Positions 744 through 20,489 of a stretch of 29,915 bases of DNA are shown here, in pieces (position 1 is the stretch's first letter; every line of letters begins with the position of its first letter). The translations under genes were made by a program, and so were the position numbers. The notes under the pieces were generated by a model. That model made no database searches, had not been told where the DNA came from, and saw only the letters and a list, made by a program, of their open reading frames with translations. Source of the DNA: Candidatus Thorarchaeota archaeon (GTDB taxonomy: Archaea; Asgardarchaeota; Thorarchaeia; Thorarchaeales; Thorarchaeaceae); NCBI GenBank assembly GCA_016839445.1, contig JAEOUG010000082.1, positions 1 through 29,915 on the forward strand, in the 5' to 3' direction.

Positions 744-1445
744 GTGGAAGGAAAGACAATGCAGACCCTCACCGAAACCACAATCCTAGTGAATCTTGTG
801 ACTGCACTGCTCTCGGCAGTGCTTTCGATCTATGTAATCAGACTCTGGTACAAACAAGAGAACAGGCTCTCAACTGACCTGCCTCTCATGTTCGGCATCA
901 CCTTCGTCGGCCAAGCAGTCAACAATGTCATGCTTGCCTTGCCTCTCATGGGATATGTTGCCGCCACGCTGCTCTACTTCAAACTACGAGCTCTCTGGCT
1001 AGTCCTGACAATCTTCCCCCTGCTTGGAGTTATCGTGAACATATGGATGCCGAAGCGCCAGAAGCACCACAACAAGATCCTCGGCTTGCTGATGTTCTAC
1101 TGGCTACTTGTCGTAGGACTCAGCCCAACAGAGGAGGTAGTGATCCGGCTCCACATGCCGGTCATTCTGATGTTGACCATCGCGATGGTTGTCACCTTTG
1201 CCATCGTCTGGAAGACGAATCGCCTAAAAGAAGTGCGAAGCGAACTCATAGTACTGACCTTCGCTCTTGGGACTGTCGGGCAAGCCATCAAGGCGGTGCT
1301 CCAGCTGGATTTCGTCACGCAGGTGTTTACGGCAATTGGAACCATCCTCATCGTCATAGCGCTTGTGAACCCGTGGTATCGACGGAAGAACGGCTCTGGA
1401 AAGAGCACTAAGGCAGACCCAGAGGCTCCCTTGCAGTACGCATAG
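744..1445 (+). CDS. Stand-alone seven-transmembrane protein, function unknown (possible sensor); start may be ATG 759
   Basis: Seven hydrophobic ~20-aa segments separated by short loops, several of them basic (RLWYKQ, KRQKHHNK, KTNRLKEVR), with a basic C-tail; no catalytic motif recognised. Confidence 0.75.
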   Translation: MEGKTMQTLTETTILVNLVTALLSAVLSIYVIRLWYKQENRLSTDLPLMFGITFVGQAVNNVMLALPLMGYVAATLLYFKLRALWLVLTIFPLLGVIVNIWMPKRQKHHNKILGLLMFYWLLVVGLSPTEEVVIRLHMPVILMLTIAMVVTFAIVWKTNRLKEVRSELIVLTFALGTVGQAIKAVLQLDFVTQVFTAIGTILIVIALVNPWYRRKNGSGKSTKADPEAPLQYA

Positions 1446-1454
1446 TCTGAAGCA

Positions 1455-2357
1455 CTACCGGACCAGAAGCTGCTTCAGCATGGAGAGCAGCGCCCGCTTT
1501 CTTGGTCCGGTCTTCACTATCTTCCCGCCAAGTAGGTCCACAAAGACAGTGGTCGGCACCACAGGTATGTGGGATCCGCCGAACAGCCAATCGTAGATTG
1601 CGGTGCAGACAAGTGCCGCGTTCTGCCGGCAGGCTACAGCCACTACGGGATTCTTACCCGCCTCGGCCCTGCTCTTCGCAAATGCAAGGTCGAGGCCGGT
1701 TGGCAGAGAGGAGATGAACCTGAAGACGAAGTCGACCACGAATCTCTCACCCTCAGGAGATCTGAGGTCCTCGGGAACGGGTCCGAAGAACTCCTCAAAT
1801 GAAGGGCTCTTCACCGGATCGAAGACCCCGAGCCCTGCACCCCAGCCTGTTGCGGGGCTACTGAAGACAGGTTGCCCGTTCTCCCTTGCTCTGTCAAACA
1901 TAGCCTTCCTAATGTGCATGACATGACTGTCGAGACCATCAACGACCACGTGAGCGCCATCCAGGAATCTGTCAAGATTCTCGAGTGTGAGTCCTTCGCT
2001 GAATACATCCACCTCCGCATCTGGAACCATCTTCAGAATCTCTTCGGCGACAACTTCTGCCTTGTTTCTACCTATAGTCGATGATGTTGCGCACAGCTGC
2101 CTGTTGAGATTCGACAGCTCAAACACGTCAGGGTCTGCAAGCTTGAACCTCCTGAAGCCCATTTGGGCAAGCGTTAGAGCGACTGACGAGTTGCCTCCCA
2201 CACCAGCCTGAGCGACAACCACCTGTGCAATGTGCTCCTGTTCCTCAAGAGTGAGAATGCCGATGTTGCGATCGAAGGCAGACCAGTACTCGGTGTTCAT
2301 AGACTCTGCTTCTGTCATCTCTTCAGTTTCCCTCTGTATCTTTGGCGTCAGCATCAC
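1455..2357 (-). CDS. ThiF/MoeB/E1-like adenylyltransferase lacking the Zn-binding CxxC pairs
   Basis: FDRNIG...EEQ, AGVGG nucleotide-binding loop, ADPDVFELSNLNRQ, IGRNKAEV, VVDGLD motifs; no CxxC pairs. True start may be a few codons downstream. Confidence 0.9.
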   Translation of the reverse strand: MMLTPKIQRETEEMTEAESMNTEYWSAFDRNIGILTLEEQEHIAQVVVAQAGVGGNSSVALTLAQMGFRRFKLADPDVFELSNLNRQLCATSSTIGRNKAEVVAEEILKMVPDAEVDVFSEGLTLENLDRFLDGAHVVVDGLDSHVMHIRKAMFDRARENGQPVFSSPATGWGAGLGVFDPVKSPSFEEFFGPVPEDLRSPEGERFVVDFVFRFISSLPTGLDLAFAKSRAEAGKNPVVAVACRQNAALVCTAIYDWLFGGSHIPVVPTTVFVDLLGGKIVKTGPRKRALLSMLKQLLVR

Positions 2358-2408
2358 AGGAGGGAAATCCTCCTGCTATGCCGCCCTGAGGCGAACCTCA
2401 TGGAACTC

Positions 2409-3953
2409 CTACATCACTTCGCAAGCAGCCAGGACATCTACATTCGTTGTGAGGGGATCTGGTTTGGCCTGAACGTGGGTTGCTTTCACTTTGTCTTCGA
2501 AGATCGACTTGGTCATCCTCGCCAAGATGGTCGGTGCGAGACCTCCGGTTTCGCGAGAATGCGTGAACTCGTAGTTGATTGCACCCATTGCATCTTCGAA
2601 CGCATGTACGAACTCCACTGGATTCACATCCTCGTTCTGGAACATGGCTGCAATTGCGTAGTATGGCAGCCCGTCTTCGACGACCCCTACAACGCTGTAG
2701 TCGGTGAGTTCAGCAGATGTTCTCCTGCACGCCTCGCTGATAGCTGTGGTGATATGCTTGTCCGACAACTTCTCGCCAGCTAGATTGACAATCCTTCCCT
2801 TCCTGCCAATCTGAACCATTGTATACGGATCAGTCGAGGAGAAGGTCACCATGTCTCCGATTCGGTAGCGATAGTAGCCGAAGTTGTTAGTTATCAGGAT
2901 TTCATAGCGACTCCCGCTCTTGACCTCTGAGAGAGGAATGACCGTCGGGTCTTCGCTTTCAATCTCATTCTCAGGTATGAACTCGAAGTAGTTCACATGT
3001 GCTAGAGGTTGCACGCCTGCTCCTTCAATGATCTGGCCTCCGAGATATCCCTCTGAGGCTCCATACATCTCCAGCATACTTGCCTGAGGTAGGGTCTTTG
3101 AGATCCACTCCTTGTACGGATTGCAGTCTATGCCCATCAATGTGAACATCGTCAGATTCGGCCAGAGCGATTCAACATCAAGCCGCCCCGTGTCGTCAAG
3201 TGCATCTCTGACCCTTGCTTCGTATTTGGTTCCCCTGAATTCGTCAAGAAGCCAGGGTCCGTACTCATTCTGCATCCGACGCACAAGTGAGAGTGTCAGG
3301 GTCGTTATTCCCTGCAGCCCCGTGACATTGGCCGTTACGAGCAGCTTGGCGTATGCTCGCATCTTTGCCTCAATGTCCATTATGTTGAATACATCCTCCC
3401 CCGGCTTCATGAGCCGCTTGAAGATGGGATTCAGTCTCCTAATCATTGCCCCTGTTGCATACCCCACGGGGACCTCGCCGATGTGGTCTACAACGGCTGG
3501 CGCCCCCATGGTCACGATTGCACCATCAAAGAGCTTGGTGTTGCGAGGATCTGAATTCATCCATGCGAACCATGTCAACATAGTGCCAGCTGAAAGGTCT
3601 TTGGATCCTGCTGCAGTCACAGGCAGACGCTTCTGTTTGCCAGAGCTTCCCGATGACTGCAGATACCATATGACTGGGTCTTTTGTCAGTATTGCGCCGT
3701 CTGGATTCTGGTGGACCTTCTCCAAGTACGGTGCAAGATTCTCATAATCACAAAGCGGAACTCTCTCCGAGAACTGTTCGGGGTTGCGGATCAGGTCGAA
3801 TCTGTGCCTTCTTCCATACACGGTGTCCTGATGCCGGCTCAAGATCGACATGAGTTTCTCCTCACTCACCTCAATGGGATGATTGAGGACCCTCTCAATC
3901 TCGGAAGCCTTCCGTTTCGCCATAACCGAGACAAGCTTCCTCATGATTGACAT
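2409..3953 (-). CDS. GH3-family acyl-acid amido synthetase (adenylate-forming)
   Basis: GH3 motifs LQSSGSSGKQKRLP, MYGASEG, YFEFIP, YEILITN.FGYYRYRIGD, and GRKG..VNLAGEKL. Confidence 0.92.
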   Translation of the reverse strand: MSIMRKLVSVMAKRKASEIERVLNHPIEVSEEKLMSILSRHQDTVYGRRHRFDLIRNPEQFSERVPLCDYENLAPYLEKVHQNPDGAILTKDPVIWYLQSSGSSGKQKRLPVTAAGSKDLSAGTMLTWFAWMNSDPRNTKLFDGAIVTMGAPAVVDHIGEVPVGYATGAMIRRLNPIFKRLMKPGEDVFNIMDIEAKMRAYAKLLVTANVTGLQGITTLTLSLVRRMQNEYGPWLLDEFRGTKYEARVRDALDDTGRLDVESLWPNLTMFTLMGIDCNPYKEWISKTLPQASMLEMYGASEGYLGGQIIEGAGVQPLAHVNYFEFIPENEIESEDPTVIPLSEVKSGSRYEILITNNFGYYRYRIGDMVTFSSTDPYTMVQIGRKGRIVNLAGEKLSDKHITTAISEACRRTSAELTDYSVVGVVEDGLPYYAIAAMFQNEDVNPVEFVHAFEDAMGAINYEFTHSRETGGLAPTILARMTKSIFEDKVKATHVQAKPDPLTTNVDVLAACEVM

Positions 3954-4211: not shown

Positions 4212-5780
4212 CTAAAGGTTGCGGAGCGTTGCGATGAGGGAGTGGAACCTCGACCTCGTGGAATCATGTACAGTCGCTGACGTGACCTCCACCCCTGCTG
4301 GCATCTCTCTGATCAATTGGGTGCTTATGAGCTGACCTGTGTACTGGGCGACGTTCATCCTTAGGAACAGGCTCGACCCCTCCTTGGAGAAGTAGGACTC
4401 GCATCTCGGCACACCCGCCTCGATACTGCCTCGAATTCTGGCAAGCTCTCTGTGGGGTCCTTCAAGGAATGCGATGATTTCGTCTCCAAGACCGAGGAGT
4501 TCTCCTGCAGGCATGTACTGGAGTGTGAACGCGCCCTCCCGGTGGAGTTTCCTAGAGCTGTTCTGCCCCTGAAAAGGAGTGACGCCTAGTTCTGACAGCA
4601 TCGTTTCTCGGGTACCGCTATCTGTGGGGAAGGCCCAACCAACGCCAAGGACAAGAGCATCGGTGTTTGCCAGATCTATGGTCTTCCGTGACCTGCGTTC
4701 TTCGTGCACAATCCAGTCCGACTCCCCTCCGGGCGATGGAGGCTTCCCCTTCAAGTCCACTGAAGTCCTCCATACTCCGTCCGCCCGGTCAAGGAGACCC
4801 AATCTCAGGGAGAGCCTCCTCTCACTGAGTACTGTGGCATCTTGTGAAACATCTGCATCCAGGGGAGTCAACCACATCTGTCCTCGAGCCAATCCCGAGT
4901 GCTGGAGGTGTAGACTCTCGGCGAGATGCCCCTGTGGTATCGTGGGGGGTCTTCTCTTGCTGGACATGACCAGAACCTGCTGCAGTCCAAGGCGTCTGAA
5001 GGAGGGGGTGAGTACTTCCCTTATGGCATACGACAGGGCGCGTAGTGTGAGACCTGGTGCTTTCCCTGTGCGAGGGGAGTACCTTGCCAGGTCTCCTAGG
5101 CGCGGCGAGTCGGCTCTTGCGAGCTTCTCGATTATTCCTCTGACCAGTGATGATATGGCCACATTCATGCCCTGGGACACCGCACCAACAATCATCTGAC
5201 CCAGCTGTGAAGGCTCTCCAGTCCTCCAGTCGTGGACTGCTTGGTAGACTGCCTGCAGCCACCATGGCTTTGTGCCAGTGACCTCCGAAACGGCGTACAG
5301 GGTCAGCATGGAGGATATCCAGCTGGGGCCGCTAATCTGGCTCCACTCTCTCTCCATGAGCCCTCCAGACACTATCCTTGCGAGGATGTGGCGCAAGGGT
5401 TCGTAGACTGCAGGAGGGATTCCTGCCGGGGTCAACAGATCAAGTTGGTCTAGCAGCGACCTGGCCCGTTTGAGTTCTCTCTCAGCTAATTCGAAGGGCC
5501 CAAGTGTGTCGGTGAGGACCCTGGCTGAGACCTTCCTCTTTGGGAGGGCTCGCAGACCTAAGCATGCATCCAGTTCGGCAGCACTGACGGTTTCACCAGT
5601 AGATAGGAAGTAGTCCAGTATGGCAGGGTCTGTCTTGATCTTGCGCATGAGACCCTTCAACGAGCTGCCTGACACGTCCCAACGCTCGATGAGGGAAGGG
5701 CTCCAGAGGTAATAAAGTATGCCTGAAACAGCCGGAATCCATGCACTTCCGTGACAGAAGATGGCTGAATTAGCGTTCAA
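4212..5780 (-). CDS. Large putative transcription regulator with tandem Lrp/AsnC-like (wHTH + RAM) modules; paralog of 21937-23589. True start probably GTG 5675, TTG 5660 or ATG 5648
   Basis: Two helix-turn-helix-like segments, each followed by the Lrp-type linker (LTPSFRRLGLQQVLV; SELGVTPFQGQNSSRKLHREGAFTLQYMPAGELLGL). Colinear similarity to the second copy. The ORF-track N-terminus overlaps a conserved non-coding motif. Confidence 0.55.
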   Translation of the reverse strand: MNANSAIFCHGSAWIPAVSGILYYLWSPSLIERWDVSGSSLKGLMRKIKTDPAILDYFLSTGETVSAAELDACLGLRALPKRKVSARVLTDTLGPFELAERELKRARSLLDQLDLLTPAGIPPAVYEPLRHILARIVSGGLMEREWSQISGPSWISSMLTLYAVSEVTGTKPWWLQAVYQAVHDWRTGEPSQLGQMIVGAVSQGMNVAISSLVRGIIEKLARADSPRLGDLARYSPRTGKAPGLTLRALSYAIREVLTPSFRRLGLQQVLVMSSKRRPPTIPQGHLAESLHLQHSGLARGQMWLTPLDADVSQDATVLSERRLSLRLGLLDRADGVWRTSVDLKGKPPSPGGESDWIVHEERRSRKTIDLANTDALVLGVGWAFPTDSGTRETMLSELGVTPFQGQNSSRKLHREGAFTLQYMPAGELLGLGDEIIAFLEGPHRELARIRGSIEAGVPRCESYFSKEGSSLFLRMNVAQYTGQLISTQLIREMPAGVEVTSATVHDSTRSRFHSLIATLRNL

Positions 5781-5942
5781 AGACTCGAAAAGAATCGAAA
5801 AAGCCTTTATAACATCTCAAATATGGTCGGAATTTCTATCAGATGTCTAAATCACCCTCTGAATCTTCTTACTTGTTTTCGGTGTTCTTGGGTAAGTTGA
5901 ACAATGAATTTGCCTCGTACTGAGTACAGGTGAAATGACAAG
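5741..5942 (+). promoter_or_regulatory. Duplicated cis-regulatory region, copy 1 (between regulator A and the recombination operon)
   Basis: Shares ATGCAyTTCyGTGAC, TGGTCGGAA, CTAAATC and TGGGTAA with 23637-23850 at a constant offset of 17,896, plus AGGTGAAAyGACAAG. Confidence 0.75.
5796..5812 (+). promoter_or_regulatory. Candidate BRE-TATA promoter (CGAAAAAGCCTTTATAA)
   Basis: Purine-rich BRE-like run followed by TTTATAA at 5806-5812, ~125 bp before the first operon gene; not conserved in copy 2. Confidence 0.45.
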
Positions 5943-6702
5943 TATGTCGTCGAGGCTTGCAGATGTTCTGGAGTCAGTCGTGGCTGATGACGCAGGTATC
6001 ATCGATTTGAGTAGGACCATGGAAATGGTCTATACGAACAGTGATCGGGCGGTCCTCTCAGCAGAACTCCTGTACTTCAGCGACTCGGAGCCTGCGTACA
6101 TGGAGATGAGAGTGGGGCTTAGGAGTGAGATACTCGTTGGATTCCCAACCTTCTTCTCCCTCACCGAGCGTCGTTTCCGTACTGCGGACATCCCATCACT
6201 TGTCCCATTGGTGGCAATCATTGCATCGAAGAAACGGCTGCAGGGAATCCACGACATACAGTTTGAGATCGATGAGCAGTCAACTCATGTGATCATCACG
6301 TTTGTCGGAAGAGCAGATCGCACTAAGTCCTGTCTCTCAGACTTGGCAAGCTCCATGAACCGGGTGATGGACCGCTGGAGCGGCTGGTCGGAGGTACTAC
6401 TCAGCATCCTGGACAGAGACCCTGTCCTAGGGGAGAGAATGACTGGCGTTGATTGGAGGGAGTTCTTGGCGGGTGAAGGTGGCTATGTCACGATGCCATG
6501 GTTCAGGCCAATGACGTATGCTGAGAGGGCATCAGCGCTCGAGTCCATAGTAACCGCCAGCCGAGCACTTCTGACTTCTTTCCTTTCACCTCATGAGATG
6601 AAGCACGACGAGGTCCAGAGTCTGCAGGCCTGGTTGTCCGCACTGGAACCTCAGTCGCGCGTCATTACAGCTGACCTAGAGCAAGTCACGGAGGTGGCAT
6701 GA
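5935..6702 (+). CDS. Hypothetical protein, first gene of operon (start may be ATG 5944)
   Basis: 255-aa ORF with SD AGGTGA; ATGA overlap with the next gene; no family recognised. Confidence 0.8.
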   Translation: MTSMSSRLADVLESVVADDAGIIDLSRTMEMVYTNSDRAVLSAELLYFSDSEPAYMEMRVGLRSEILVGFPTFFSLTERRFRTADIPSLVPLVAIIASKKRLQGIHDIQFEIDEQSTHVIITFVGRADRTKSCLSDLASSMNRVMDRWSGWSEVLLSILDRDPVLGERMTGVDWREFLAGEGGYVTMPWFRPMTYAERASALESIVTASRALLTSFLSPHEMKHDEVQSLQAWLSALEPQSRVITADLEQVTEVA

Positions 6703-7154
6703 TGTTAACACAGGAGTACGTATCGTGGGAGATAGGGTTGGTCTACGATGTCATGGATGAGGCTTGGCTGGCTGGTGCCAAGGCTGGCATCACACAAAGA
6801 GAGGGGCCAACATCTGACGAGGAATGGTTGGACTTCATTGAGAGCCTTAGAGTCATCCTGGATCGGATGCCGGAGGTGAAGGCTGCCGAGCCGGGTACTG
6901 CACCATCAGAGAGGTCTCTCTATGATGCACTTGGCGGCTATGTGAGTTTGACTGGCTGTCTTGGTATGGGATTTCTTTCGTTTCCTGTACCATTGATTCG
7001 GCAGGCCATGGTTCTCTCGTTATTTCCAGGCATGGATGTACGCGCAAGAGGCTCAGTGGTGAGCATCCCATATGGGGAGCTTCTGCGCTTCACCAGACTA
7101 GTCCCTATCAGAGGCCCACTGCAGGATGACCTCGGGAGGGTCTGCGATGACTGA
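6699..7154 (+). CDS. Hypothetical protein
   Basis: 151-aa ORF, SD GGAGGTGG, overlaps both neighbours. Confidence 0.75.
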   Translation: MMLTQEYVSWEIGLVYDVMDEAWLAGAKAGITQREGPTSDEEWLDFIESLRVILDRMPEVKAAEPGTAPSERSLYDALGGYVSLTGCLGMGFLSFPVPLIRQAMVLSLFPGMDVRARGSVVSIPYGELLRFTRLVPIRGPLQDDLGRVCDD

Positions 7155-8202
7155 CCTTGAGGCGGTTCCCGGAGTCGGCCCGGCGGCAGCGAAGAAGCTC
7201 AGAGAGGCATTCATCACAACCGCAGAACTTCTGAGTGTTCAGAATCCGGCTGAGTTACAGGAAAGGACCAAGCTGGGTGAGGGTACGGTATCCAAGATCA
7301 TCAAGAGCGCGAGGGACATGACTGGCAAGTTCGGCTTCCGGTCAGGTCTTGAGATAGAGGAGGAAATGCTTACGACCCCACGGCTCACCTCAGGGCTCCC
7401 CAGCCTTGACGAAGCGCTCTTTGGAGGCATCGAGGCAGGCTCCATCATGGAGTTCTATGGCAGTGCAAGAGGTGGGAAGACACAATGGTGTGCTCATCTC
7501 GCAGTTCGTGCACAACTCCCCGAGGATCAGGGGGGTCTCGCTGGTCGAGTCCTCTGGCTTGATACGGAGTCAAGCTTCAAACCTCATGTCATAAGAGCGA
7601 ATGCCGTACGATGGGGTCTGGACCCTGACGCTGCACTCGCCAACATCGGAAGGGCTCAGGTAGTGCTTAGCGGACAGATTGAGGAGATCTTCGAGACCAT
7701 TCCGCAGTTGTGTGCCGAGCAGGACTACAAGCTCGTGATCGTGGACTCGTTGACTGGTCTCTTCAGAGCCGAGTACACAGGACTTGACTCGTTGAGAATC
7801 CGACAGCAAGACATCAACAGACTTCTGAATCAGATGAGGCGAACTGGCACAGCAACTGATGCCATCTTCGCCTACACCAACCAAGTCATGGCCAAGATTG
7901 CAGTCTATGGTGGAAACCCGAACGCTCCTGTGGGCGGTCACATAGTGAGTCACGCATCCGACTACAGGTTCTACGTGAGGAAGGCCCTCAAAGAGAAGCG
8001 GAAGATAGACCTCCAGGACAATGCAGGCGTTCCAGAATTCTCGAAGGAGTTCGTACTTGGTTGGGGCGGATTCTATGAGGACTCCAAGGCATGCAAGCAA
8101 TCAGAAGCGAAGATACAGAAGTACTTCGATGAAAGGGGTTGGGGAATGAAGGAGAGAGAGGAGCCGGAGGAGGAGAGCGACTCAGAAGAAGCGGAGGAGT
8201 AG
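7147..8202 (+). CDS. radA: RadA/Rad51-family recombinase (divergent full-length paralog)
   Basis: N-terminal HhH (DLEAVPGVGPAAAKKL), polymerisation motif FRSG, Walker A GSARGGKT, LDTE, Walker B LVIVDS, FRAEY..RQQ, TNQV, GGHIVSH; acidic tail. Start moved to ATG 7147 (SD GGGAGGG). Confidence 0.9.
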   Translation: MTDLEAVPGVGPAAAKKLREAFITTAELLSVQNPAELQERTKLGEGTVSKIIKSARDMTGKFGFRSGLEIEEEMLTTPRLTSGLPSLDEALFGGIEAGSIMEFYGSARGGKTQWCAHLAVRAQLPEDQGGLAGRVLWLDTESSFKPHVIRANAVRWGLDPDAALANIGRAQVVLSGQIEEIFETIPQLCAEQDYKLVIVDSLTGLFRAEYTGLDSLRIRQQDINRLLNQMRRTGTATDAIFAYTNQVMAKIAVYGGNPNAPVGGHIVSHASDYRFYVRKALKEKRKIDLQDNAGVPEFSKEFVLGWGGFYEDSKACKQSEAKIQKYFDERGWGMKEREEPEEESDSEEAEE

Positions 8203-8212
8203 GTGGCAGAGC

Positions 8213-8653
8213 ATGAGTAAGACTAGAGGGATGATTAGGATATACAGATGCTCAAGGTGTCATAACGTAGGCTATTCTCGAGTGAGAGACCAGTCTGACG
8301 ACTCCATGTGCAGTCTGTGTTCCGCGACGATTACGCATTCGCCAAGTGCGATTTACGTCGACACGCCTGAAGAGGCGCAGCAACGGATGAAGAGCATGAT
8401 ACTACGGGCTGGACTCGAAAAGCCAGGAGTGAAGCGTGGTCTTGGTGTGAAGAAACGAGTGTTCAACATAGTCCTCTCACTTGTCGAAACCAACCGTGGT
8501 CGTCCTGTTTCACGGGAGCAGATTATGCAGGAGTGCAATGACGCAAAGATTGCCGATGACAAGGCCCAGAGTTTCCTTGAACAGCTGGAGGATGAGGGTC
8601 TCGTTATCAGTGACGGGAGTCTGATCACGGTTTCAGGAGGTGGTGTCACTTGA
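8213..8653 (+). CDS. Zn-ribbon + C-terminal winged-helix protein (DUF1922/DUF5817-like from memory)
   Basis: CSRC...CSLC followed by DTPEEAQQRM; C-terminal VSREQIMQEC...KAQSFLEQLEDEGLVI winged helix. Confidence 0.7.
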   Translation: MSKTRGMIRIYRCSRCHNVGYSRVRDQSDDSMCSLCSATITHSPSAIYVDTPEEAQQRMKSMILRAGLEKPGVKRGLGVKKRVFNIVLSLVETNRGRPVSREQIMQECNDAKIADDKAQSFLEQLEDEGLVISDGSLITVSGGGVT

Positions 8654-9240
8654 CCGCAGAAGCCGTTCAGTCAACACCACGAGCCTCAGTGATCAGTCTG
8701 GCCAATCTCCTCCAGAGGGACACTCCAAACAGGATAGCCATTGTTTCGACAGCCCTACCAGAGATAGACCCAGAGCTGTATGTCGTGACGAAGACAGAGT
8801 GGAAGAACCCAAGAGAGCCACTCCTTCATCAGCTTCCTCGGCTTCTCTCGAATCTGGAGGCTCTACGGGGCACACGGGGAGTACCATCCGAGGTGTATCT
8901 GGACAGCAACGATGGCATTGCTCTCTACTTGCCTACAGGAATACACGTGTCAGACATACCTATGGATCCAAAGAACGCCGTGCTGTTCCTGAAAGAAGTA
9001 ATCAGAGATACAATCGACTTCTACATCACAACAGTGAAGGATGTAGAGGCTCACTTCTGGAAGTTCGCCAAGAGGGAGGGATTCAGCAAGACGATTGTAG
9101 AGAAGATTGGCAGGAAAGAGGAGGGATTCCGATCTAGGTCCACCCTCTCTCGGTTCCATTCTCTCATGAGGCAGTACTTCTCCATTAAGTTCAGGATTCA
9201 TACCTCAGAGTCCTGCTTGAGGGTGGAGGGGCCGGTATGA
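8650..9240 (+). CDS. Hypothetical protein
   Basis: 196-aa ORF, TTG start in a TTGA overlap with SD GGAGGTGGTG; ATGA overlap with the helicase gene. Confidence 0.75.
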   Translation: MTAEAVQSTPRASVISLANLLQRDTPNRIAIVSTALPEIDPELYVVTKTEWKNPREPLLHQLPRLLSNLEALRGTRGVPSEVYLDSNDGIALYLPTGIHVSDIPMDPKNAVLFLKEVIRDTIDFYITTVKDVEAHFWKFAKREGFSKTIVEKIGRKEEGFRSRSTLSRFHSLMRQYFSIKFRIHTSESCLRVEGPV

Positions 9241-11207
9241 GCGCCGCCGCCCTTGATCCAATGGTGTGGTTTCCATACGAACCTAGGCCACATCAGGACA
9301 GGGCGGTGAAGTTTGCATCTCGGGTCTACTCTGAGAAGACTGTTGGTCTTCTGTCCGCTGACTGCGGCGTTGGAAAGACCATAGCAGTGCTCTCGGGGTA
9401 TTTGGCAGTACGAGCTAGAGACCCTTTCTCAAGGCTCCTGGTGCTCACACGCACACACTCGCAGTCTAAGGTCTTCGAAGAGGAGCTGACGGAGCTTCGA
9501 CTACATGATCCTGGAGAGGAGTGGCGCACAAACCTCACCGCCACTAGTATGGTGTCTCGAGTCCATGTGTGCCCCATGAAAGGACGCATGGAGCAGCTCA
9601 CAACGATGGGGTTCACGAAGCAGTGTGCGAAACTTGTCAAGACTGGCCAGTGCTCGTTCTACTGGAACTGTTACTCAAAGGGGAAGGGCGAAGTCCGTGT
9701 TCTTCCGAGGCCGTTCTTCAGAGAACAGGTGGAGTCTCTTCTGGCCACGCAGATTGTGACACGGGAGGCTGCTGAGAGGCTCTCGGAGTCTACGGGTTTC
9801 TGCCCCTACGAGGTCCTTCGATGGTGTGCAAAGAGCAGCCGCGTCCTAATCGGCCCCTATGACTACGTGTTCCGAGAACGAGTCAGGGACGCTCTTCTCT
9901 CCTCGGTTGGGTGCAATCTAGGCGAAGTCGACATACTAGTGGACGAGGCTCACAACCTCCCCGATCATGTTCTGAACTCGGAGGCCGCTGAGCTGAGCGG
10001 CAGAGACCTACTCTGGCTGAGGAAAAACAAGAAGCTCATCGTTCGTGACACTGGCGTCAAGTGGCTTGAGGACACTGTAGACTTCCTGTGGGAAACCGTG
10101 ATGCTCAGTCTCGACGGACTAAGGGATGAGAAGCGGCTTAACACGTGGGATGTATTCCCGCGTTTCGCAGACCCTTCACAGCTGAGCCAGCTTATGGAGT
10201 TCGACAGCGCAGTTGAGGGGATGGAGGACGCAATCCCAGTTGATACTCCTTTGGACCGTCTAGTGGCCTTCCTGTACTCGGGCCACAGGTCTGCCCAAAG
10301 CGAGGATTGGCTGGTCACGATTGAGCTCCTCGGAGCAGGCGAGGAAAGGTCTGAGGTCGAGGTCTCAAACACCCTACTGCGGATACGCCCGTTGAATGCA
10401 GCTGGTCTGATAGCTCCTGTCCTCAGGAGTGCGAGGTCTGCTATGGTCATGTCAGGGACACTGCGACCGACGGAGCACTACGGCAGGATGCTCGGCATAT
10501 CAAGCGCAGAGAAGGAGGACCTGCTAAGCCCCTACCCAAAGGGGACTCGGCTCATTCTCGTTGACAAGGAGGTTTCGACGAAGTACACTCTCCGAGGGCC
10601 ACTTATGTGGAGAAGGATTGCAACCCGCATCGAGACTGCTCTGCGTAGCCTGCCGCCCAACAAAAGCGCGCTAGTGTCGTTTCCGAGCTACGCGATAATG
10701 CAGGAAATCCTCAGCTACGGAATCGATTGCGGATTCAGGGAGATGCTTGTCGAGGACAGAACAATCAGAATCGAGGACGTTGAGGAGTCCGTTCTTCTCA
10801 CTCCTCATGCAATCTTCTGTGTTTACGGTGGGAAGATCAGTGAGGGAATAGACCTTGTCGAGAATGGCTCCAGCATGATCGACCTGATAATTGGCACGGG
10901 AATCCCGTTCTCGCCACCGAGCAGTCATCAGAAAGCCCTTCAGGATTTCTATGACAGAAGGTACGGCGACAAGTCTGGATACTACTACTCAGCAGTATTG
11001 CCGTCGATTCGCCAGGTCGTACAACTCGCAGGGAGGCTAAGGAGGTCACCAGAGGACAGAGGCGTTGTCGTGCTGCTTGACAAGCGATTCCTGAGATACA
11101 TGAATGCGTTTGGAGACGATGCCGCCTCAGACCTGTGGCCATTTGCCGGCGACCAAGAGCTGGCTGATGCCATTGAGCTCTTTGTCAGGGAGGTTGCAGC
11201 TCAATGA
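9237..11207 (+). CDS. xpd: XPD/Rad3/DinG-family Fe-S cluster SF2 DNA helicase
   Basis: Q motif FPYEPRPHQ, Walker A ADCGVGKT, four Fe-S cysteines (VCPM, QCAK, QCSFY, FCPYE), DEAHNL, SGTL, FPSY, GKISEGID, QLAGRLRRSPEDRGVVVLLDKRF. Confidence 0.92.
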   Translation: MSAAALDPMVWFPYEPRPHQDRAVKFASRVYSEKTVGLLSADCGVGKTIAVLSGYLAVRARDPFSRLLVLTRTHSQSKVFEEELTELRLHDPGEEWRTNLTATSMVSRVHVCPMKGRMEQLTTMGFTKQCAKLVKTGQCSFYWNCYSKGKGEVRVLPRPFFREQVESLLATQIVTREAAERLSESTGFCPYEVLRWCAKSSRVLIGPYDYVFRERVRDALLSSVGCNLGEVDILVDEAHNLPDHVLNSEAAELSGRDLLWLRKNKKLIVRDTGVKWLEDTVDFLWETVMLSLDGLRDEKRLNTWDVFPRFADPSQLSQLMEFDSAVEGMEDAIPVDTPLDRLVAFLYSGHRSAQSEDWLVTIELLGAGEERSEVEVSNTLLRIRPLNAAGLIAPVLRSARSAMVMSGTLRPTEHYGRMLGISSAEKEDLLSPYPKGTRLILVDKEVSTKYTLRGPLMWRRIATRIETALRSLPPNKSALVSFPSYAIMQEILSYGIDCGFREMLVEDRTIRIEDVEESVLLTPHAIFCVYGGKISEGIDLVENGSSMIDLIIGTGIPFSPPSSHQKALQDFYDRRYGDKSGYYYSAVLPSIRQVVQLAGRLRRSPEDRGVVVLLDKRFLRYMNAFGDDAASDLWPFAGDQELADAIELFVREVAAQ

Positions 11208-11797
11208 AACGCACGACACACTGGCTCCTTCTTTGGGTCTTGCTCGTGTCAGTCGCCGCAAGCTCCCTTGTGGTCGTTGTAACGGCTGAAACGCTGGCTT
11301 TGCGAATCATAGCATTGGCGACCATAGCTGTGGTCGGGATGTGCAGTTACGTTCTCTTGTTCAGAAAGTCTACTCCCCAGATCTTCTGGGACGAGGAGAT
11401 GGGAATCTTGTTATTGTTTGGAGTCTGGAACGTTGAAGCGAGAGCAGCTCGTCTTCTTAGGAGTGTTCCTATTGGCATAGACGTTTCCTACTCGGCGAAG
11501 AAAGTAATGCAGGCGATGAGTGAGAGGCTGCCCAAGAGTGGAAACTGCAGGTTGGACTTCGTGGTCCACCGGCCTGTGGGGAACAGCTCGACCCGCGCAG
11601 GGTTCATAGTAGCTCGATCCAAGTTCATCGGATTGCTCAGCAAGAAGCGAGTCAACGACCTCTGTGATTCTGTGTTTCAGGACGCCACAGTATTGGAGAG
11701 CGCGATGCGGTCATCGTATCCGCACACTCCGGTAGAGAGAGGTGAGCTAGAGGACGTGCGAATGATCATGACTGGGGGCACTAGCGTTGTTGTCTGA
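11204..11797 (+). CDS. Membrane protein (two N-terminal TM helices + soluble alpha/beta domain)
   Basis: Hydrophobic residues ~7-27 and ~30-54; ATGA overlap; SD GGAGGT. Confidence 0.78.
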   Translation: MKRTTHWLLLWVLLVSVAASSLVVVVTAETLALRIIALATIAVVGMCSYVLLFRKSTPQIFWDEEMGILLLFGVWNVEARAARLLRSVPIGIDVSYSAKKVMQAMSERLPKSGNCRLDFVVHRPVGNSSTRAGFIVARSKFIGLLSKKRVNDLCDSVFQDATVLESAMRSSYPHTPVERGELEDVRMIMTGGTSVVV

Positions 11798-12065
11798 AGG
11801 GCAAGAGGTGATATCGCTGCCGATTCCTCCAAGAGTCAAGATCGGTGCCGTCACAGCATTCCTCGGCAACGGCCATGGATATCGTTGGACTACAATCTCC
11901 TTCACTCCAGTTAGGATGGAGCTGGGCAGATCCTCAAAGAGCGAATTGCCGGACCTCGTGATAGTTGGGAGGACGCTCTACTCGAATGGAAACTCGCAGT
12001 CTATTCATGAGCGTCTGGGAATGGTGCTAGATCATCTTGACAGGCAAGCTGGAGGTGGAATCTGA
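11787..12065 (+). CDS. Small hypothetical protein
   Basis: 92-aa ORF that exactly fills the gap between coupled genes; its 3' end carries the SD GGAGGTGG for the next gene. Confidence 0.65.
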   Translation: MLSEGQEVISLPIPPRVKIGAVTAFLGNGHGYRWTTISFTPVRMELGRSSKSELPDLVIVGRTLYSNGNSQSIHERLGMVLDHLDRQAGGGI

Positions 12066-14387
12066 TTGTCAGGGTCAAAAGCAAACATTCTGGGTTCTAA
12101 ACCTGCAGAAGATCCCATGGACCTCATAGAGTCGAGAAGCAGAGGCACGGTGAGGAACACAGAGATTCGGTGGGATGACCGCTCCATCGGATACCCGGTG
12201 GACAAGATGGCGGGGCTTGGACTGCTAAGCTTTGCACTGGGCGTCTTGCAGCCGGCTCTTGCCCTTGCAGCGGCTTGTACCCTCCTAGCTGTGCTCTTCG
12301 TGCTTCCTAGGTTGCGGGTTCACTTGGGGGGGCTCGGCGCCTCGTCGGAACGTTGGGCTGAGGTCAGTCAGGCAGACATTGCACTAGAGTCCGAGGACAA
12401 GGTGGTTAGGAGCAGAGGAACGGGCAGAGACCGGTTCATCACAGCTCTGGAGGCTCAGCATATTGGGGCGATTCTGCCAGGTAACTTAGGCAAGGTGATT
12501 CGAGGTGTTGACACAGACTTCGGGATTCAGCTCTCCGTGAGTCTCTCGCCTCAGGATTCCAATGGTGTTGTGGAGGATGGAGTCCTAGATGCTTCTCTTG
12601 TTTCGTACCTTGAACAGAACTCCTCCGAGCAAAGACGCGCATACTTCTATGTCCGCGGAGGTGTTTGGAGGACGGGCCTCAGACTGATTGGGTCTTCATT
12701 CGATCCTACGCACCTTAGGCTCTTCGAGAGCCAGATCCTTGGCAGTCTTCCTGTGAGTGGGCTCAAGGGGGTGAGTCCTCAGAGACTCTCTGAGCAACTC
12801 TCCAATTGGGACGCAACCTCCAGCGAGCAGTCTTTCATGGCCGCCGGAGTTGAGCTCAGTGAATGGCTGGTTCAGATTCCAAGCGAACTTGCCCCTGAAG
12901 TCGGCAGCAATGTCCCTGGCGAGTTCATCTCCCCCATCAGAGCGAACTTGATGGATTACCGTATCGGCCTGGCAATCAATCCAGAAACACTCAAGGATGG
13001 TCCCCCCGTCGGCTTCTCTCACTCCAATCTAGAGGCGGGACTCCTCGTCTGCGGTGGAGACTGGAGCGACAGACTCGCTGCTATATCGGTACTCGTTCGT
13101 GAGTTGCTGAATCTCGGGAGAAGGGTCTTGATAGTATCTCAGGAAAGAGAGTCTATTCGGCTTGCAAGCATTACAGATGGTGGTATCGGGATGACCCTCG
13201 GGCAGGACCTGATAGTCAATCCTGTTGACTCCGAAGGGATCCGAAGGTCGAAGTACGTTTCTGAGCTTCTTCTTGCCTTCGAAGGCCTCGCGGGCGTGAA
13301 TCTCAGCGCGGCAACTGACTTTGAGGTTGCACTCAACCGTGTAGTGGCCTTAGGTAATGGCACAGTAGCAGATGTCACTCTGAATGAACTCGCTGAAGAC
13401 ATGGAAACAGGAAGGGTTCCGGGGAGCACCAGCTCACGCGAGTCGAGACTGGCCTTGGACTCGATTCGCAGGCTCCACGAAGGGTCTGGAGCACAAGCAT
13501 TCTACGGAACACAGACCGCATCTATGAAGCGCATCGCAGAACAGGATCTTGCAGTCATTGTGATTCCCTTCGAGTCTCCTGACCTCACCATGTTCGCATA
13601 CGATATACTCTGTCTGAAGCTCTCTGGCCTCGAACCTGATCCTGACCTAGTGGTGATCTTGGACTCACCAACCAATCTCCTGGTTAGCGGAAGCACATTC
13701 AGGTACACGAAAAAGAGCATCATGGCAATCTCCCAGGTTAGAGATCTTCTAAGGAGGGGTCCACTAGTTGCCAGTATCAAGAGCCCCGCAGGCTTACCCA
13801 ATGAGTGCGCAGACTCGTTCGGCTCATGTCTGGCTCTGCGCCTGCGCGAAACCCCTGATATCGCGGCTGTTTCCGACCTGCTCTCATTGAGTGTTGTGGG
13901 CGTCGGCATACACAGCAAGAAGAGAGTATCTTCCAGAGAGAGCTCATTCTTGAGGGTGATGGAGCCTAATCAGGCGCTTCTCTCACATCCAGAGATGAAG
14001 ACCTGTGTCCCAGTCAGGTTAGATTCTCCTCCCCCGCTTGAGCACCTTAGCTCCTCAGTAGTCCATGGGATTAACCGTGAGGAGAGATCATCTAGTGACC
14101 GAAAGAAGACCCTGCTTGAAACCATTGGGGGCAAGGACAGCCAGTCTCTCGTCCAGGTACTAGGCCTACTGACAAAGTACGAGCCACTTACTGAGCAGTC
14201 AGTTGCGCAGTTCCTGAAGGCAAGTGGATCTCCCGATGTTGACGTTGAGGCAACTCTCGCTCGACTGGAGAAGGCCAGCATGATTCTGAGGGGTCAGGAA
14301 ACCCACGGGGGAGTGTCTTACACAAACTACCGCATTACTATGAAGGGCACAATGGCACTAAGGCAGGCCGAGGGGGTGTCTGCGTAA
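12066..14387 (+). CDS. Membrane-anchored HerA/VirB4/TraD-like P-loop protein with degenerate Walker motifs and C-terminal winged helix
   Basis: N-terminal TM hairpin, then YRIG...VGF...LLVCGGDWSDRL (Walker A position), RVLIVSQ, IVNPV, VVILDSPTNL (DEAH position), LVASIKSPAGLP...GSCLALRL...D, LRVMEPNQALL; wHTH ending YRITMKG. Confidence 0.65.
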   Translation: MSGSKANILGSKPAEDPMDLIESRSRGTVRNTEIRWDDRSIGYPVDKMAGLGLLSFALGVLQPALALAAACTLLAVLFVLPRLRVHLGGLGASSERWAEVSQADIALESEDKVVRSRGTGRDRFITALEAQHIGAILPGNLGKVIRGVDTDFGIQLSVSLSPQDSNGVVEDGVLDASLVSYLEQNSSEQRRAYFYVRGGVWRTGLRLIGSSFDPTHLRLFESQILGSLPVSGLKGVSPQRLSEQLSNWDATSSEQSFMAAGVELSEWLVQIPSELAPEVGSNVPGEFISPIRANLMDYRIGLAINPETLKDGPPVGFSHSNLEAGLLVCGGDWSDRLAAISVLVRELLNLGRRVLIVSQERESIRLASITDGGIGMTLGQDLIVNPVDSEGIRRSKYVSELLLAFEGLAGVNLSAATDFEVALNRVVALGNGTVADVTLNELAEDMETGRVPGSTSSRESRLALDSIRRLHEGSGAQAFYGTQTASMKRIAEQDLAVIVIPFESPDLTMFAYDILCLKLSGLEPDPDLVVILDSPTNLLVSGSTFRYTKKSIMAISQVRDLLRRGPLVASIKSPAGLPNECADSFGSCLALRLRETPDIAAVSDLLSLSVVGVGIHSKKRVSSRESSFLRVMEPNQALLSHPEMKTCVPVRLDSPPPLEHLSSSVVHGINREERSSSDRKKTLLETIGGKDSQSLVQVLGLLTKYEPLTEQSVAQFLKASGSPDVDVEATLARLEKASMILRGQETHGGVSYTNYRITMKGTMALRQAEGVSA

Positions 14388-16579
14388 TGAGCGCCGTAGT
14401 GAGTGTACCGGACAACGTCACACGAATCTTGGAGGAGGTAGGAGTTACTCCCCGAGGTATTCAGATACAGGCTATCGATGCTGGTCTGTTACATGGTGAG
14501 AGTATTCTGGTCACTTCCCCCACAGGCTCAGGGAAGACGCTCATCGGAGAGATGGGTCTTCTTAGGGCGGTCTTGGCTGGTCGTCGAGGTCTCTACTTGG
14601 TTCCTCTGAGAGCACTAGCGCACCAAGTTGCGAGGTCTCTGAAGGATCGATATGACGGAAGAGCGGTCAGAATCGGAGTGACTACCGGAGACCTCCACCT
14701 CTCTGGTGAAGAGATGGCTGGTTTCGACGTAGTGGTGACTACCTATGAACGAGCAGACTCCTTACTGAGACATCAGGCTAGTTGGCTCTCTGAGATTGGC
14801 ACGGTGGTCATTGATGAGATTCAGACAATGTCGGAGGGGCGGAGAGGTGCAAGACTTGAGAGCGTCATCCTCCGTATCAAGCGAATGATAGGAGATGTGC
14901 AGCTGATTTCGCTCTCAGCAACGGTGGACCAGCCGCAGGAACTTGCATCGTGGCTGGACGCGAAGCTGGTAGCTTCCACGGAACGCCCTGTACCTCTTGT
15001 CTATAAGATGTTCACCACCTCAAATCGGCATCTTACGGTTCGAACTGCCACGATGGCCGTTGTGCAGTCAGAGGGTCAAGTAATCGTGTTTCACAGGACT
15101 CGGAGAGAAGCGGAGGCAGAAGCCGAGAGGCTCTCTGTCCATGTGGGGCGCCAACTAGGAACCTCTGAGAGAGACCTGCTTGACAGAGAGTTGGACTCCT
15201 TCTCTCAAAGAGAGACTACCTTGAGCGGGCAGCTTCGCAAGCTTCTGCACCACGGTGTCGCCTTCCACCATGCTGGAATCCCGTCTGGCCCGAGATGCTT
15301 GGTTGAGGACCTCTTCAGGAGGGGACTGATCCGAGTAGTCTGCGCCACCACAACGCTTGCCTCCGGAATGCATCTTCCTGCCAGGACGGTAGTACTCGCT
15401 AGCACACGTTCTCCTGAGAACCACAGGGCCCTTCTCTCAGCAAACTCTGTTCATCAGATGCTTGGCAGAGCTGGTCGGCCCGGTTACGACAGCGCCGGGT
15501 TCGGTGTTGTTCTGGTGGGCAGCAGGGGAGAATCTGATGTGGCGAAGAAGCTGTACTTTCATGTATCTGGAGAAGATGGACGGGAAAAGCTCTCTCCTCG
15601 GTACGATTCTGTGTCCAGCGCCTTGGGCTCTTCCGACCACCTTACTGAGCAGGCTCTTGTTCTGCTCGATCTCTTAGGAGAGGCGACACCTGAAGAGATC
15701 GAGGATGCACTCTTAGATTCTTACTACGTGCACTCAGGCGCGAGACGGTCAAGAAGCCCAATGCGACTGCTCATTGTGGAGTCAGTTAGCGCTGAAACCG
15801 CTATCGAACGCCATGGTCTGAGTGACACAATCAGGGCAGGGAGGGAGGGAGTGCTCGGGAAGGCTGGCATTAGAGAGTCATCTCAAGAGGTGATTGGTGG
15901 AATAGTTTCTGGCTTTCAGGGGGGTCATTTCACCTGCAGATTCTCTGCTCGCCTCAATACCAACGGCACAATAGAGGGGGCTAGTTGCTCCTGTGGCAGT
16001 CCGATAGAGGAGGGCATTCTATGTGTGCATCTAGTAGCACTTGGCTTGCAGGCCGTGCGCGACCCTCAAGCAAGTTCACTGGCTGACTATGTCATTCCAC
16101 TTGCTCTGGATGAACATGCCCCACTGGGAACTCTGACTCGACTTGGCCTAGTAGAGGCAGGGCGAGAGAAACCGTACCAAATCTCAAGGCTTGGCCGATT
16201 GGTGACCCGGCTGTACCTGAGCATCTCAACGGCGAGAGAGCTTCTCGCATGTATACCGTTCACAGATGATCCAGTTGGCTTGATGTCCCTGCTCCGTCAC
16301 TTGCTAGCCATTGAGTCTGATCTCAGACTTGATGAGTCGTTTGACCAATTCATAGGGGCCGTAGCCACGACCACAACGCCAGTCCGGGAGGTCGCCGAGT
16401 CATGTGGAATTCCTCTCGGAGATGCATTTGGCCTTCTGGACCGGTCTCGGTGGATGCTTCATGCTATCAGCGTTTTGTCGGAGCATGGTGGCCTTGAGAG
16501 ATTGAAGGACATCAGCGGAAGCCTACTGAATGCGGTTAATTCCAGACTTGAAAGGAGGTCTGTAGATGGAGATAGTTGA
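14387..16579 (+). CDS. hel308: Hel308/Ski2-like SF2 helicase with inserted SWIM zinc finger
   Basis: SPTGSGKT, VPLRALA, TTYER, DEIQ, SAT, RPVPL, FHHAG, ATTTLASGMHLPA, QMLGRAGRPGYD; SCSCGSPIEEGILCVH (CxCx9CxH). Confidence 0.88.
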   Translation: MSAVVSVPDNVTRILEEVGVTPRGIQIQAIDAGLLHGESILVTSPTGSGKTLIGEMGLLRAVLAGRRGLYLVPLRALAHQVARSLKDRYDGRAVRIGVTTGDLHLSGEEMAGFDVVVTTYERADSLLRHQASWLSEIGTVVIDEIQTMSEGRRGARLESVILRIKRMIGDVQLISLSATVDQPQELASWLDAKLVASTERPVPLVYKMFTTSNRHLTVRTATMAVVQSEGQVIVFHRTRREAEAEAERLSVHVGRQLGTSERDLLDRELDSFSQRETTLSGQLRKLLHHGVAFHHAGIPSGPRCLVEDLFRRGLIRVVCATTTLASGMHLPARTVVLASTRSPENHRALLSANSVHQMLGRAGRPGYDSAGFGVVLVGSRGESDVAKKLYFHVSGEDGREKLSPRYDSVSSALGSSDHLTEQALVLLDLLGEATPEEIEDALLDSYYVHSGARRSRSPMRLLIVESVSAETAIERHGLSDTIRAGREGVLGKAGIRESSQEVIGGIVSGFQGGHFTCRFSARLNTNGTIEGASCSCGSPIEEGILCVHLVALGLQAVRDPQASSLADYVIPLALDEHAPLGTLTRLGLVEAGREKPYQISRLGRLVTRLYLSISTARELLACIPFTDDPVGLMSLLRHLLAIESDLRLDESFDQFIGAVATTTTPVREVAESCGIPLGDAFGLLDRSRWMLHAISVLSEHGGLERLKDISGSLLNAVNSRLERRSVDGDS

Positions 16580-18173
16580 ACACGAAGTAACAGAGTCAGC
16601 AGGAACGGAAGAGAACGAGATTGAGAGGCACCTTAAGCGAAATGACTATCGAGTGTGCCAGTACCCCAATGGGTTGACCATGGGTCTCAGACTCCAGAGT
16701 GTCCCCGGCTCTCGCGGCGTAAACGTCGACGTAGTCCACATTCTGGACATGCGCATAGCTAGGTTCGGTAGAACTTCCTTGGCTGCTCAGTCGGCGGTTC
16801 TTGAGACCGTGTGCAAAGACACTCGACTCCTGCTTGCTGACGTGGGACTTGGTTCTCTCTTTGAAAGCCAGGAGATTGTCACCCCGTTCGGCAAGAGTGT
16901 ACTCCGTGTCCTTCGGCTACCAAAGGCCTCTCAGGCATCTCTCATCTACGAAACCCGGAACGTCTATGGTGTGTATTCAGATGCAAGCGTGCCGCCCTCA
17001 ACCCTGGAGTGGTTGACTGAATCCTCCAAGATGATTAGAGTAAGTGAACTTGAGCTCTTACACAGGAGTGATTCAAGATCCTCGCTTCAGGAGGTGAAGA
17101 AGGCTATTGACTCCGGCAAGTGGAAAGAGCTTGAGAAGGGCCACAGGGCAGCATGGTGGAGTCTCCTTCCACTTATCACCACAGTCGCATCTTTCGTGGG
17201 ATTCATGGCGTCAATAGTCACTTCCTCAGGCACTCTGCTAATCCCGTTGATGACGCTCGCTGTGTCAGTGCCCCTTCTGGCCTGGTTAGCAAGGACCGCG
17301 ACAGCGGCGTTGGACGCGTTCAACGAGGCTCTAGTAACCGAGAAGGCCCACCTAGAACGGGCTGGCGATGTCAATAGAATCAGAGAGGCTGTCCACGCCG
17401 GCGAAGAGAAGCTCCGACTCGTGGGGAACTTGAACTTCATTGTCACTCCCCTGATGGGTGGCGCGGGTGTAGCAATCGAGTCTGGTGATGTTGCTTCTGC
17501 CGCATCTTCTCTCTCCGCAATCCTAGATGAGTGCGTTGTACACTCTCCTGGGCTTGAGGGTGAGAAGGGGTTGGTTGGTGATCTGGGGCTTAAGAAGTTC
17601 ATCGAGCTCTTTCTCTACTTGGGCCTGGATCTCTCCGAAGATGAAGAGATGGAACTAAGTCTTGCTTATGCAGCCCTCACAGGTCACAAGTCAGCGCCGC
17701 TGGCTCAACACGAGATTATCCATCACATGGGAGTCTTGAACAATGCATTGTTTGATTGCGGAATCCTCAGTGCCGACGTCAAGTCCTCCATTGACGACAT
17801 GATGAATCTTCGGGCCGCGGGAGGATATGTCATAGAAACAGTGCGTGATGAAGCATCTGAAGAGATTGCTGAGATTCCCGAAGGTGACGAAGAGGGCTCT
17901 TCAGGAATAGATGATGAAAGTCTAGCAGAGATGAGTTCGGCGGCTTTGAAAGCCAGCGGGGATGAAGATGTCGTCGAAGCAGCAGATGAGGATGACTCGG
18001 AGCCGATTCTTGTTGCAGAAACAGTCCAGACAACCCTTGATGCGAGTGACGATCTCCCGAAGGCCAGTCCTATCGAACACGAGACGGCCGAGGGAAGAGT
18101 CGCAAAGGCAGTTGAGGAGCGCTCGGAGAGTTCCTCATCGAAGAAGAAGGAGCGCGAGGCCATTGAAGCTTGA
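16566..18173 (+). CDS. Membrane protein with central TM hairpin and acidic low-complexity C-terminal tail
   Basis: WWSLLPLITTVASFVGFMASIV / LLIPLMTLAVSVPLLAWLA; D/E-rich final ~110 aa; SD AGGAGGT. Confidence 0.8.
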   Translation: MEIVEHEVTESAGTEENEIERHLKRNDYRVCQYPNGLTMGLRLQSVPGSRGVNVDVVHILDMRIARFGRTSLAAQSAVLETVCKDTRLLLADVGLGSLFESQEIVTPFGKSVLRVLRLPKASQASLIYETRNVYGVYSDASVPPSTLEWLTESSKMIRVSELELLHRSDSRSSLQEVKKAIDSGKWKELEKGHRAAWWSLLPLITTVASFVGFMASIVTSSGTLLIPLMTLAVSVPLLAWLARTATAALDAFNEALVTEKAHLERAGDVNRIREAVHAGEEKLRLVGNLNFIVTPLMGGAGVAIESGDVASAASSLSAILDECVVHSPGLEGEKGLVGDLGLKKFIELFLYLGLDLSEDEEMELSLAYAALTGHKSAPLAQHEIIHHMGVLNNALFDCGILSADVKSSIDDMMNLRAAGGYVIETVRDEASEEIAEIPEGDEEGSSGIDDESLAEMSSAALKASGDEDVVEAADEDDSEPILVAETVQTTLDASDDLPKASPIEHETAEGRVAKAVEERSESSSSKKKEREAIEA

Positions 18174-20484: not shown

Positions 20485-20489
20485 CAGAG

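Follow-up and report, generated by a model that had tools for sequence, protein, structure and literature searches.

A GH3–ThiF gene pair in a Thorarchaeota archaeon: a candidate route to cyclised N-acyl amino acids

We analysed a stretch of 29,915 nucleotides from a Candidatus Thorarchaeota archaeon (GenBank contig JAEOUG010000082.1, assembly GCA_016839445.1). This stretch, hereafter the window, is a complete contig (G000:C46 in our set) of a genome of 2.9 Mb that is 90% complete. On its minus strand, a gene of the GH3 family is followed directly by a gene encoding a ThiF-like protein. We propose, with a probability of about 0.55, that GH3 makes an N-acyl amino acid and that ThiF cyclises it without an oxidase, giving a lactam or a saturated azlactone. 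The elements of the pair are the following.

2409–3953, minus strand: GH3-family acyl-acid amido synthetase of 514 aa, with intact motifs; a near-core gene of the host family
1455–2357, minus strand: zinc-less ThiF-like adenylyltransferase of the PRK08223/OxzB-type group, 300 aa from GTG; likely start ATG 2318 (287 aa)
2356–2400, minus strand: stretch between the two genes, predicted to form two hairpins, of which the second carries AGGAGG inside its stem

Conservation of the pair

The preliminary description of this DNA had reported co-oriented GH3 and ThiF genes 51 bp apart, and both open reading frames (ORFs) are indeed intact and neighbouring. The gap of 51 bp holds when it is counted from the GTG at 2357. 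Yet the true start of ThiF is probably the ATG at 2318, since the nearest homologues are 284–290 aa long and the upstream ATG is out of frame in a relative (L110), and the gap from this start measures 90 bp. The junction of the two genes, which would be transcribed together, is spanned by contigs of two of the four sequencing runs examined (X3 and X5, from two studies). Both intergenic stems also fold in L110, where the letters have changed, in a comparison limited to two sequences and made without a shuffle control. A scan for sigma-70 promoters and terminators, with models that are ill-suited to archaea, remained at chance level (2 versus 2.8 and 2 versus 2.9).

Orthologues of this ThiF were found in 12 of 400 Asgard genomes, all of the host family (11 of its 85 other genomes), in a total of 14 copies. 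Thirteen lie directly behind GH3 on the same strand, and the fourteenth starts at a contig end. The adjacency is therefore not due to chance, and the co-occurrence across genomes that the preliminary description had proposed as a check is present. Of nine metagenome loci of the Thorarchaeota type, seven show the pair and two are too short, although some of these loci overlap the genomes and are not independent of them.

The reverse dependence is not observed: ThiF is tied to GH3, whereas GH3 usually occurs without ThiF. GH3 is present in 64 of the 86 family genomes (21 of the 23 of high quality), and its usual site, between Mre11-Rad50 and a RadA-like operon, is conserved. Linked and solo copies of GH3 coexist in four genomes (G017, G023, G027, and G382), and the linked state changes seven times on a GH3 tree of 54 rows, on which gains and losses are not distinguishable. 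Because most GH3 copies have no ThiF, the latter is an add-on, an optional tailoring step, to an older GH3 function. The GH3 of the window groups with solo copies of genus g10 (98) and apart from the copies of genus g1, to which its genome belongs. The neighbouring RadA-like gene is closest to copies of g1, g9, and g3. This pattern suggests paralogue sorting or transfer within the family.

The two enzymes and their relatives

The GH3 ORF exceeds the cut-offs of the three Pfam models GH3, GH3_M, and GH3_C (PF03321, PF23571, and PF23572), and its three nucleotide motifs, as defined in PMC12493201, are all intact: SSGSSGKQKRLP at residues 100–111, YGASE at 297–301, and GYYRYRIGD at 359–367. The bacterial GH3 enzyme OlsH of Singulisphaera acidiphila is described as making N-acyl ornithine from free fatty acid with ATP and Mg2+, with minor activity on lysine and arginine (PMC12493201). 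It is likewise a prokaryotic GH3 with all three motifs. It differs from ours in score, as the NCBIfam OlsH model gives 135 bits here, under its cut-off of 620, and in its partner, the alpha/beta-hydrolase O-acyltransferase OlsI; in the genomes analysed, the gene behind GH3 is ThiF and not OlsI wherever a co-oriented conserved partner exists. N-acyl amino lipids are said in that source to be absent from archaea (PMC12493201). The plant enzyme JAR1 (AtGH3.11) also matches (E-value of 2.5e−21) and shares the fold family and the nucleotide-binding motifs, but plant GH3 proteins are distant and have no ThiF partner, and a hormone substrate is not readable from the archaeal sequence.

Other Asgard lineages carry GH3 genes in different contexts. 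Genus g28 of family f12 (G057, G160, G161, and G162) has 8 to 12 GH3 matches per genome, and one of its loci (L261, G161:C43:9000–27275) presents seven full-length GH3 genes in a tandem array followed by an ATP-binding cassette transporter, an expansion resembling that of plants. In a genome of family f3 (L262:4122–9589, G038), an aldehyde ferredoxin oxidoreductase, GH3, and a methyltransferase follow each other in the same orientation, a hint that amino-acid-derived acids could serve as acyl donors. A conserved hexapeptide-repeat protein of 376–425 aa adjoins GH3 in families f26, f30, and f25 (L267, L268, and L270), and B12 radical-SAM genes adjoin it in L270 and L271.

The product of the second gene matches Pfam ThiF (E-value of 3.8e−33). 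As the preliminary description had noted, it has no CxxC motif: its cysteines are three (89, 243, and 251), and the motif count is 0 in 13 of 13 orthologues, versus 2 in both MoeB and ThiF of Escherichia coli. The zinc site is thus lost, while the adenylation residues are invariant in six orthologues (R30, G52/G54/G55, D75, N83, R86, Q87, K99, D140, and D143), with roles that are presumably those of their counterparts in ThiF and MoeB.

In profile comparisons, the protein is homologous over its full length to domains of OxzB architecture (254 columns, E-value of 1e−49). Its C-terminal half matches only OxzB-type proteins, which are ThiF-nitroreductase fusions linked to FeeM-like genes; these serve as stand-ins for OxzB and TyzB, and the label is loose, as one row of the set (L199) has no oxidase match. 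TrzS-type domains match the N-terminal half only. The NCBIfam model PRK08223 gives 182 bits, and the best structural match is AclA (PDB 9egb), at an identity of just 20–22%. Its nearest relatives outside Thorarchaeota are P0041 and P0042, and ThiF was probably acquired from bacteria, because it is placed among bacterial sequences. At least 16 of the 39 loci of non-Thorarchaeota relatives have a neighbour of FeeM, GNAT, or autoinducer-synthase type, and others are nitroreductase fusions; the neighbours of these loci were scanned in part, and no GH3 was seen among those scanned. These sequence comparisons support a placement of ThiF with the FeeM-linked, OxzB-type enzymes and not with TcdA, MoeB, or UbaA. 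A second archaeal group with a PRK08223-like ThiF, in Methanosarcinales (L160 and L163), lies outside the Thorarchaeota clade; it shows a PALP enzyme and a methyltransferase downstream of ThiF and, in L160, a GNAT upstream.

The FeeM family (PF21926) was found in none of the 86 family genomes, and the loci gave no match to the FeeM profile, in searches that did not cover TyzA-type proteins separately. GH3 is likely to stand in for FeeM, because the ThiF is OxzB-type, the pair is conserved, FeeM was not found in the family, and OlsH has the corresponding activity. The preliminary description had drawn the same inference, which appears sound.

The proposed reaction and its alternatives

In the simplest reading, two adenylations would occur in series, by GH3 and then by ThiF. 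GH3 would consume ATP to form an amide between a free carboxylic acid and an amino acid. ThiF would then adenylate the remaining carboxyl of the N-acyl amino acid, and an internal nucleophile would close the ring without any oxidase. A diamino acid would yield a stable lactam, as in the N-acyl-cyclolysine (ACL) route, while other amino acids would yield a labile saturated azlactone, perhaps handed on. Because there is no oxidase to stabilise an azlactone, we slightly favour a ring closed through the side chain, a lactam or lactone, as the product that lasts. If true, two genes would suffice for an Asgard archaeon to make a cyclised N-acyl amino acid independently of coenzyme A, and the near-core GH3 of Thorarchaeota and its conserved seven-helix neighbour would gain a function. 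A GH3-fed, oxidase-free branch would also join the few small-molecule ThiF reactions known, among which OxzB is the only one recorded in a 2025 review (PMC12596934). No description of the pair was found in the literature searched (archaea and Asgard, bacterial GH3 clusters, and Asgard seven-helix proteins), a search whose coverage leaves out most subscription journals.

The pair most likely works like the OxzAB or ACL routes. OxzAB of Pseudoalteromonas rubra and the mycobacterial TyzACB and TrzAS systems also set a maker of N-acyl amino acids beside a ThiF-like, ATP-dependent cyclase (bioRxiv 10.1101/2020.06.11.147165; PMC10404671; PMC12856293), and oxazolone ThiFs are described as adjoining both an oxidase and an acyltransferase (PMC12856293). 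These systems differ from ours in that they employ an acyl-CoA N-acyltransferase, whereas here an ATP-dependent GH3 would use the free acid, and in that they have a flavin oxidase, whereas in this archaeal host none is fused, adjacent, or found in the genome. As for the ACL system, Linares-Otoya and coworkers reportedly presented it in 2025, with AclA forming the lactam. It belongs to Bacteroidota (PMC13419125; PMC13080023) and has a LuxR-type regulator beside it. Here no LuxR-type regulator or kinase was found among the scanned ORFs of the window or the conserved neighbours, and the acylating enzyme is GH3. Searches for the acyltransferase, the oxidase, and the LuxR gene found none of them, and the pair is a member of neither group. 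A lactam of the AclA kind is no less plausible than an oxazolone.

An oxazolone in the sense of OxzAB, Tyz, and Trz, as the preliminary description had envisaged, is not supported by the gene content. It would require an unlinked nitroreductase-family oxidase acting in trans, and the 11 nitroreductase matches of the genome, in about nine genes, together with the proximity of ThiF to OxzB-type domains, are what this scenario has in its favour. However, the OxzB-type and TrzS-type oxidase halves gave only short generic motif matches in this genome (at most 29 bits), and no such flavin oxidase is fused to or near any Thorarchaeota copy of ThiF. Thorarchaeota are known as anaerobes. The desaturation in Tyz and Trz requires O2 (PMC12856293; PMC10404671), and the sources of this DNA are mostly sediment samples, so that a classical desaturated N-acyl oxazolone is highly improbable.

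Several observations weigh against the proposed cyclisation of a GH3 product. The first concern the placement of ThiF, which falls under the PRK08223 cut-off of 266 bits. The sequences of OxzB, TyzB, and AclA were absent from the trees, in which stand-ins were picked by architecture and context. TcdA, the ct6A synthase, is the top match in the Protein Data Bank, both with the single sequence (E-value of 3e−11) and with a profile (111 bits, over positions 20–155 only, versus 103 bits over positions 5–250 for AclA). The phylogeny proposed in the preliminary description recovered the kinship with the OxzB type, and the best trees do not group ThiF with TcdA, but approximately unbiased tests gave no clear rejection of a grouping with TcdA (P = 0.146, 0.050, and 0.018) or with E1s that bind zinc (0.19 and 0.068); the trees thus exclude TcdA weakly.

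These borderline tests and the PDB searches, as well as the fact that TcdA too has no CxxC, would agree with a TcdA-like tRNA cyclase or with an E1 that acts on a ubiquitin-like protein or a sulfur carrier. We regard such a role as very unlikely. TcdA and the ThiF/MoeB/UbaA group share the adenylation core, but their matches end at about residue 170–200 and their C-terminal half is not detectably homologous to that of this ThiF (E-value of 0.11 for TcdA), which fits OxzB-type proteins only. The TcdA and UbaA models score 51 bits each (the TcdA cut-off being 304), and the protein is acidic, with an isoelectric point of 5.2 versus 8.8 for E. coli TcdA. Further differences are its patchy distribution (12 of 400 genomes) and the missing zinc site and carrier gene: no stop-to-stop frame of 50–250 aa ending in Gly-Gly occurs in the window, in line with the earlier remark that no ubiquitin-like or ThiS partner lies nearby, and a canonical E1 is encoded elsewhere in the genome.

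The second group of contrary observations concerns the linkage. About 52 of the 64 GH3-bearing genomes have no ThiF, no GH3 residue was found that cleanly separates linked from solo copies, and one ThiF copy (G034) is broken. The two enzymes may thus share no substrate, with ThiF inserted once behind a conserved GH3, then carried along or lost, and acting on another carboxylate. The broad synteny of the locus (Mre11, Rad50, and the RadA-like operon) is compatible with this, and recurrent loss could account for the seven changes on the GH3 tree. Nevertheless, ThiF keeps its place behind GH3 where the flanks differ (G028, G034, G355, and both copies of G359), and its relatives elsewhere adjoin enzymes making N-acyl amino acids. 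We hold separate substrates to be rather unlikely.

The last contrary point is chemical. TyzA and TyzB alone are described as giving no detectable cyclised intermediate in vivo (PMC12856293), and for this reason an azlactone formed without an oxidase may not accumulate. The same lability could mean that ThiF activates the GH3 product and then hands it over to an external amine, lipid head group, or protein. The azlactone or adenylate would in that case be an intermediate, and the end product would be an amino-lipid of the membrane or an acylated protein instead of a free ring. In favour of this, OlsH products go into membrane lipids, the C-terminus of ThiF is a basic helix of moderate amphipathicity, and the neighbours include a membrane protein and frequently a protease of the CPBP/Rce1-like type. 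Yet the surroundings of the 14 ThiF copies hold no conserved gene for an acceptor or an acyltransferase, and the hydrophobic moment of the helix (0.65) barely exceeds the 95th percentile of the protein (0.59) and is lower in some orthologues. Transfer to an acceptor is a possible outcome that we consider unlikely.

The seven-helix neighbour and the remainder of the window

A further gene converges on the pair.

744–1445, plus strand: seven-helix membrane protein of 233 aa with no Pfam family, tail-to-tail with ThiF and GH3; candidate receptor or membrane partner

Its predicted model has seven long helices (predicted local distance difference test score of 81), in agreement with seven hydropathy peaks, and none of 18 members of its family matched Pfam. 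All Foldseek rows are G-protein-coupled receptors (GPCRs), with E-values of at least 5.7e−3 and TM values of 0.4–0.6, none at or below 0.001; such a list may be expected of any seven-helix bundle. The gene faces GH3 within 2 kb in 27 of the 53 family genomes examined (22 do not show this and 4 are too short, out of the 64 with GH3). In 7 of the 12 genomes with ThiF, this third gene separates the other two, and one genome (G382) has two seven-helix/GH3 units in tandem, one of them including ThiF. In the distant Asgard family f12, 18 of 19 genomes carry the seven-helix gene; these 18 were selected for that reason, and most come from one genus. The loci show the gene facing GH3 in 15 of them, and coordinates add a sixteenth. 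The GH3 of f12 is about 26–32% identical to that of the host family, and no other neighbour is common to both.

One might envisage N-acyl-amide signalling in Asgard archaea, in which GH3 makes the ligand, the GPCR-like protein senses it, and the inserted bacterial-type ThiF cyclises and alters the signal. Archaea show quorum-type responses whose signals are unknown, according to a review (PMC13419125). If the scheme held, it would supply the first synthase-receptor pair defined in archaea, with conjugation of the plant GH3 type coupled to a receptor shaped like a GPCR, and this in the lineage closest to eukaryotes. We consider this scheme doubtful; the seven-helix gene is a circumstantial hint, and a receptor role should be read as a lead. 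Several observations speak against a dedicated partnership: in 13 GH3-bearing genomes of seven other families the two genes were not adjacent, and second seven-helix copies stand away from GH3, with a CPBP protease next to them in 13 of 20 loci. No GH3-specific subfamily was found, since adjacent and non-adjacent copies intermix (12 changes versus a shuffled mean of 15.5). Nor was homology found to HisKA_7TM, the sensor domain of kinases that adjoin bacterial ThiF relatives (hhalign E-value of 0.11 with a five-sequence profile, no Pfam match, and an Atlas lead of 0.83 only). Among 14 seven-helix loci of more distant Asgard families, none had GH3 in the 1.5-kb flanks and one faced a zinc-less ThiF of another subgroup.

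In family f9 (G223, L305:418–2220), a homologue of the seven-helix gene converges on a different zinc-less ThiF, and the GH3 of the window found no match in that genome. Several genomes encode a fusion of the seven-helix protein with a CPBP/Rce1-like protease (for instance, L088:5671–7254, L089:5007–6659, L113:6285–7850, and L266:5789–7327), and many more carry the two side by side.

Upstream of GH3 on the same strand, an ORF of 522 aa (4212–5780, minus strand) has no match in Pfam or NCBIfam; homologues occur in 3 of 33 other clustered loci and in L110. At the far end of the window (24416–29915), the final 4.8 kb past an ORF of 239 aa consist of short ORFs of at most 121 aa. Between these regions, a long co-oriented operon (5935–21936) encodes a RadA-like protein, an XPD/Rad3 helicase, a Hel308-like helicase, a second Rad51-like protein, and an XPG/FEN nuclease, together with several unannotated ORFs, and its first genes are kept across the family.
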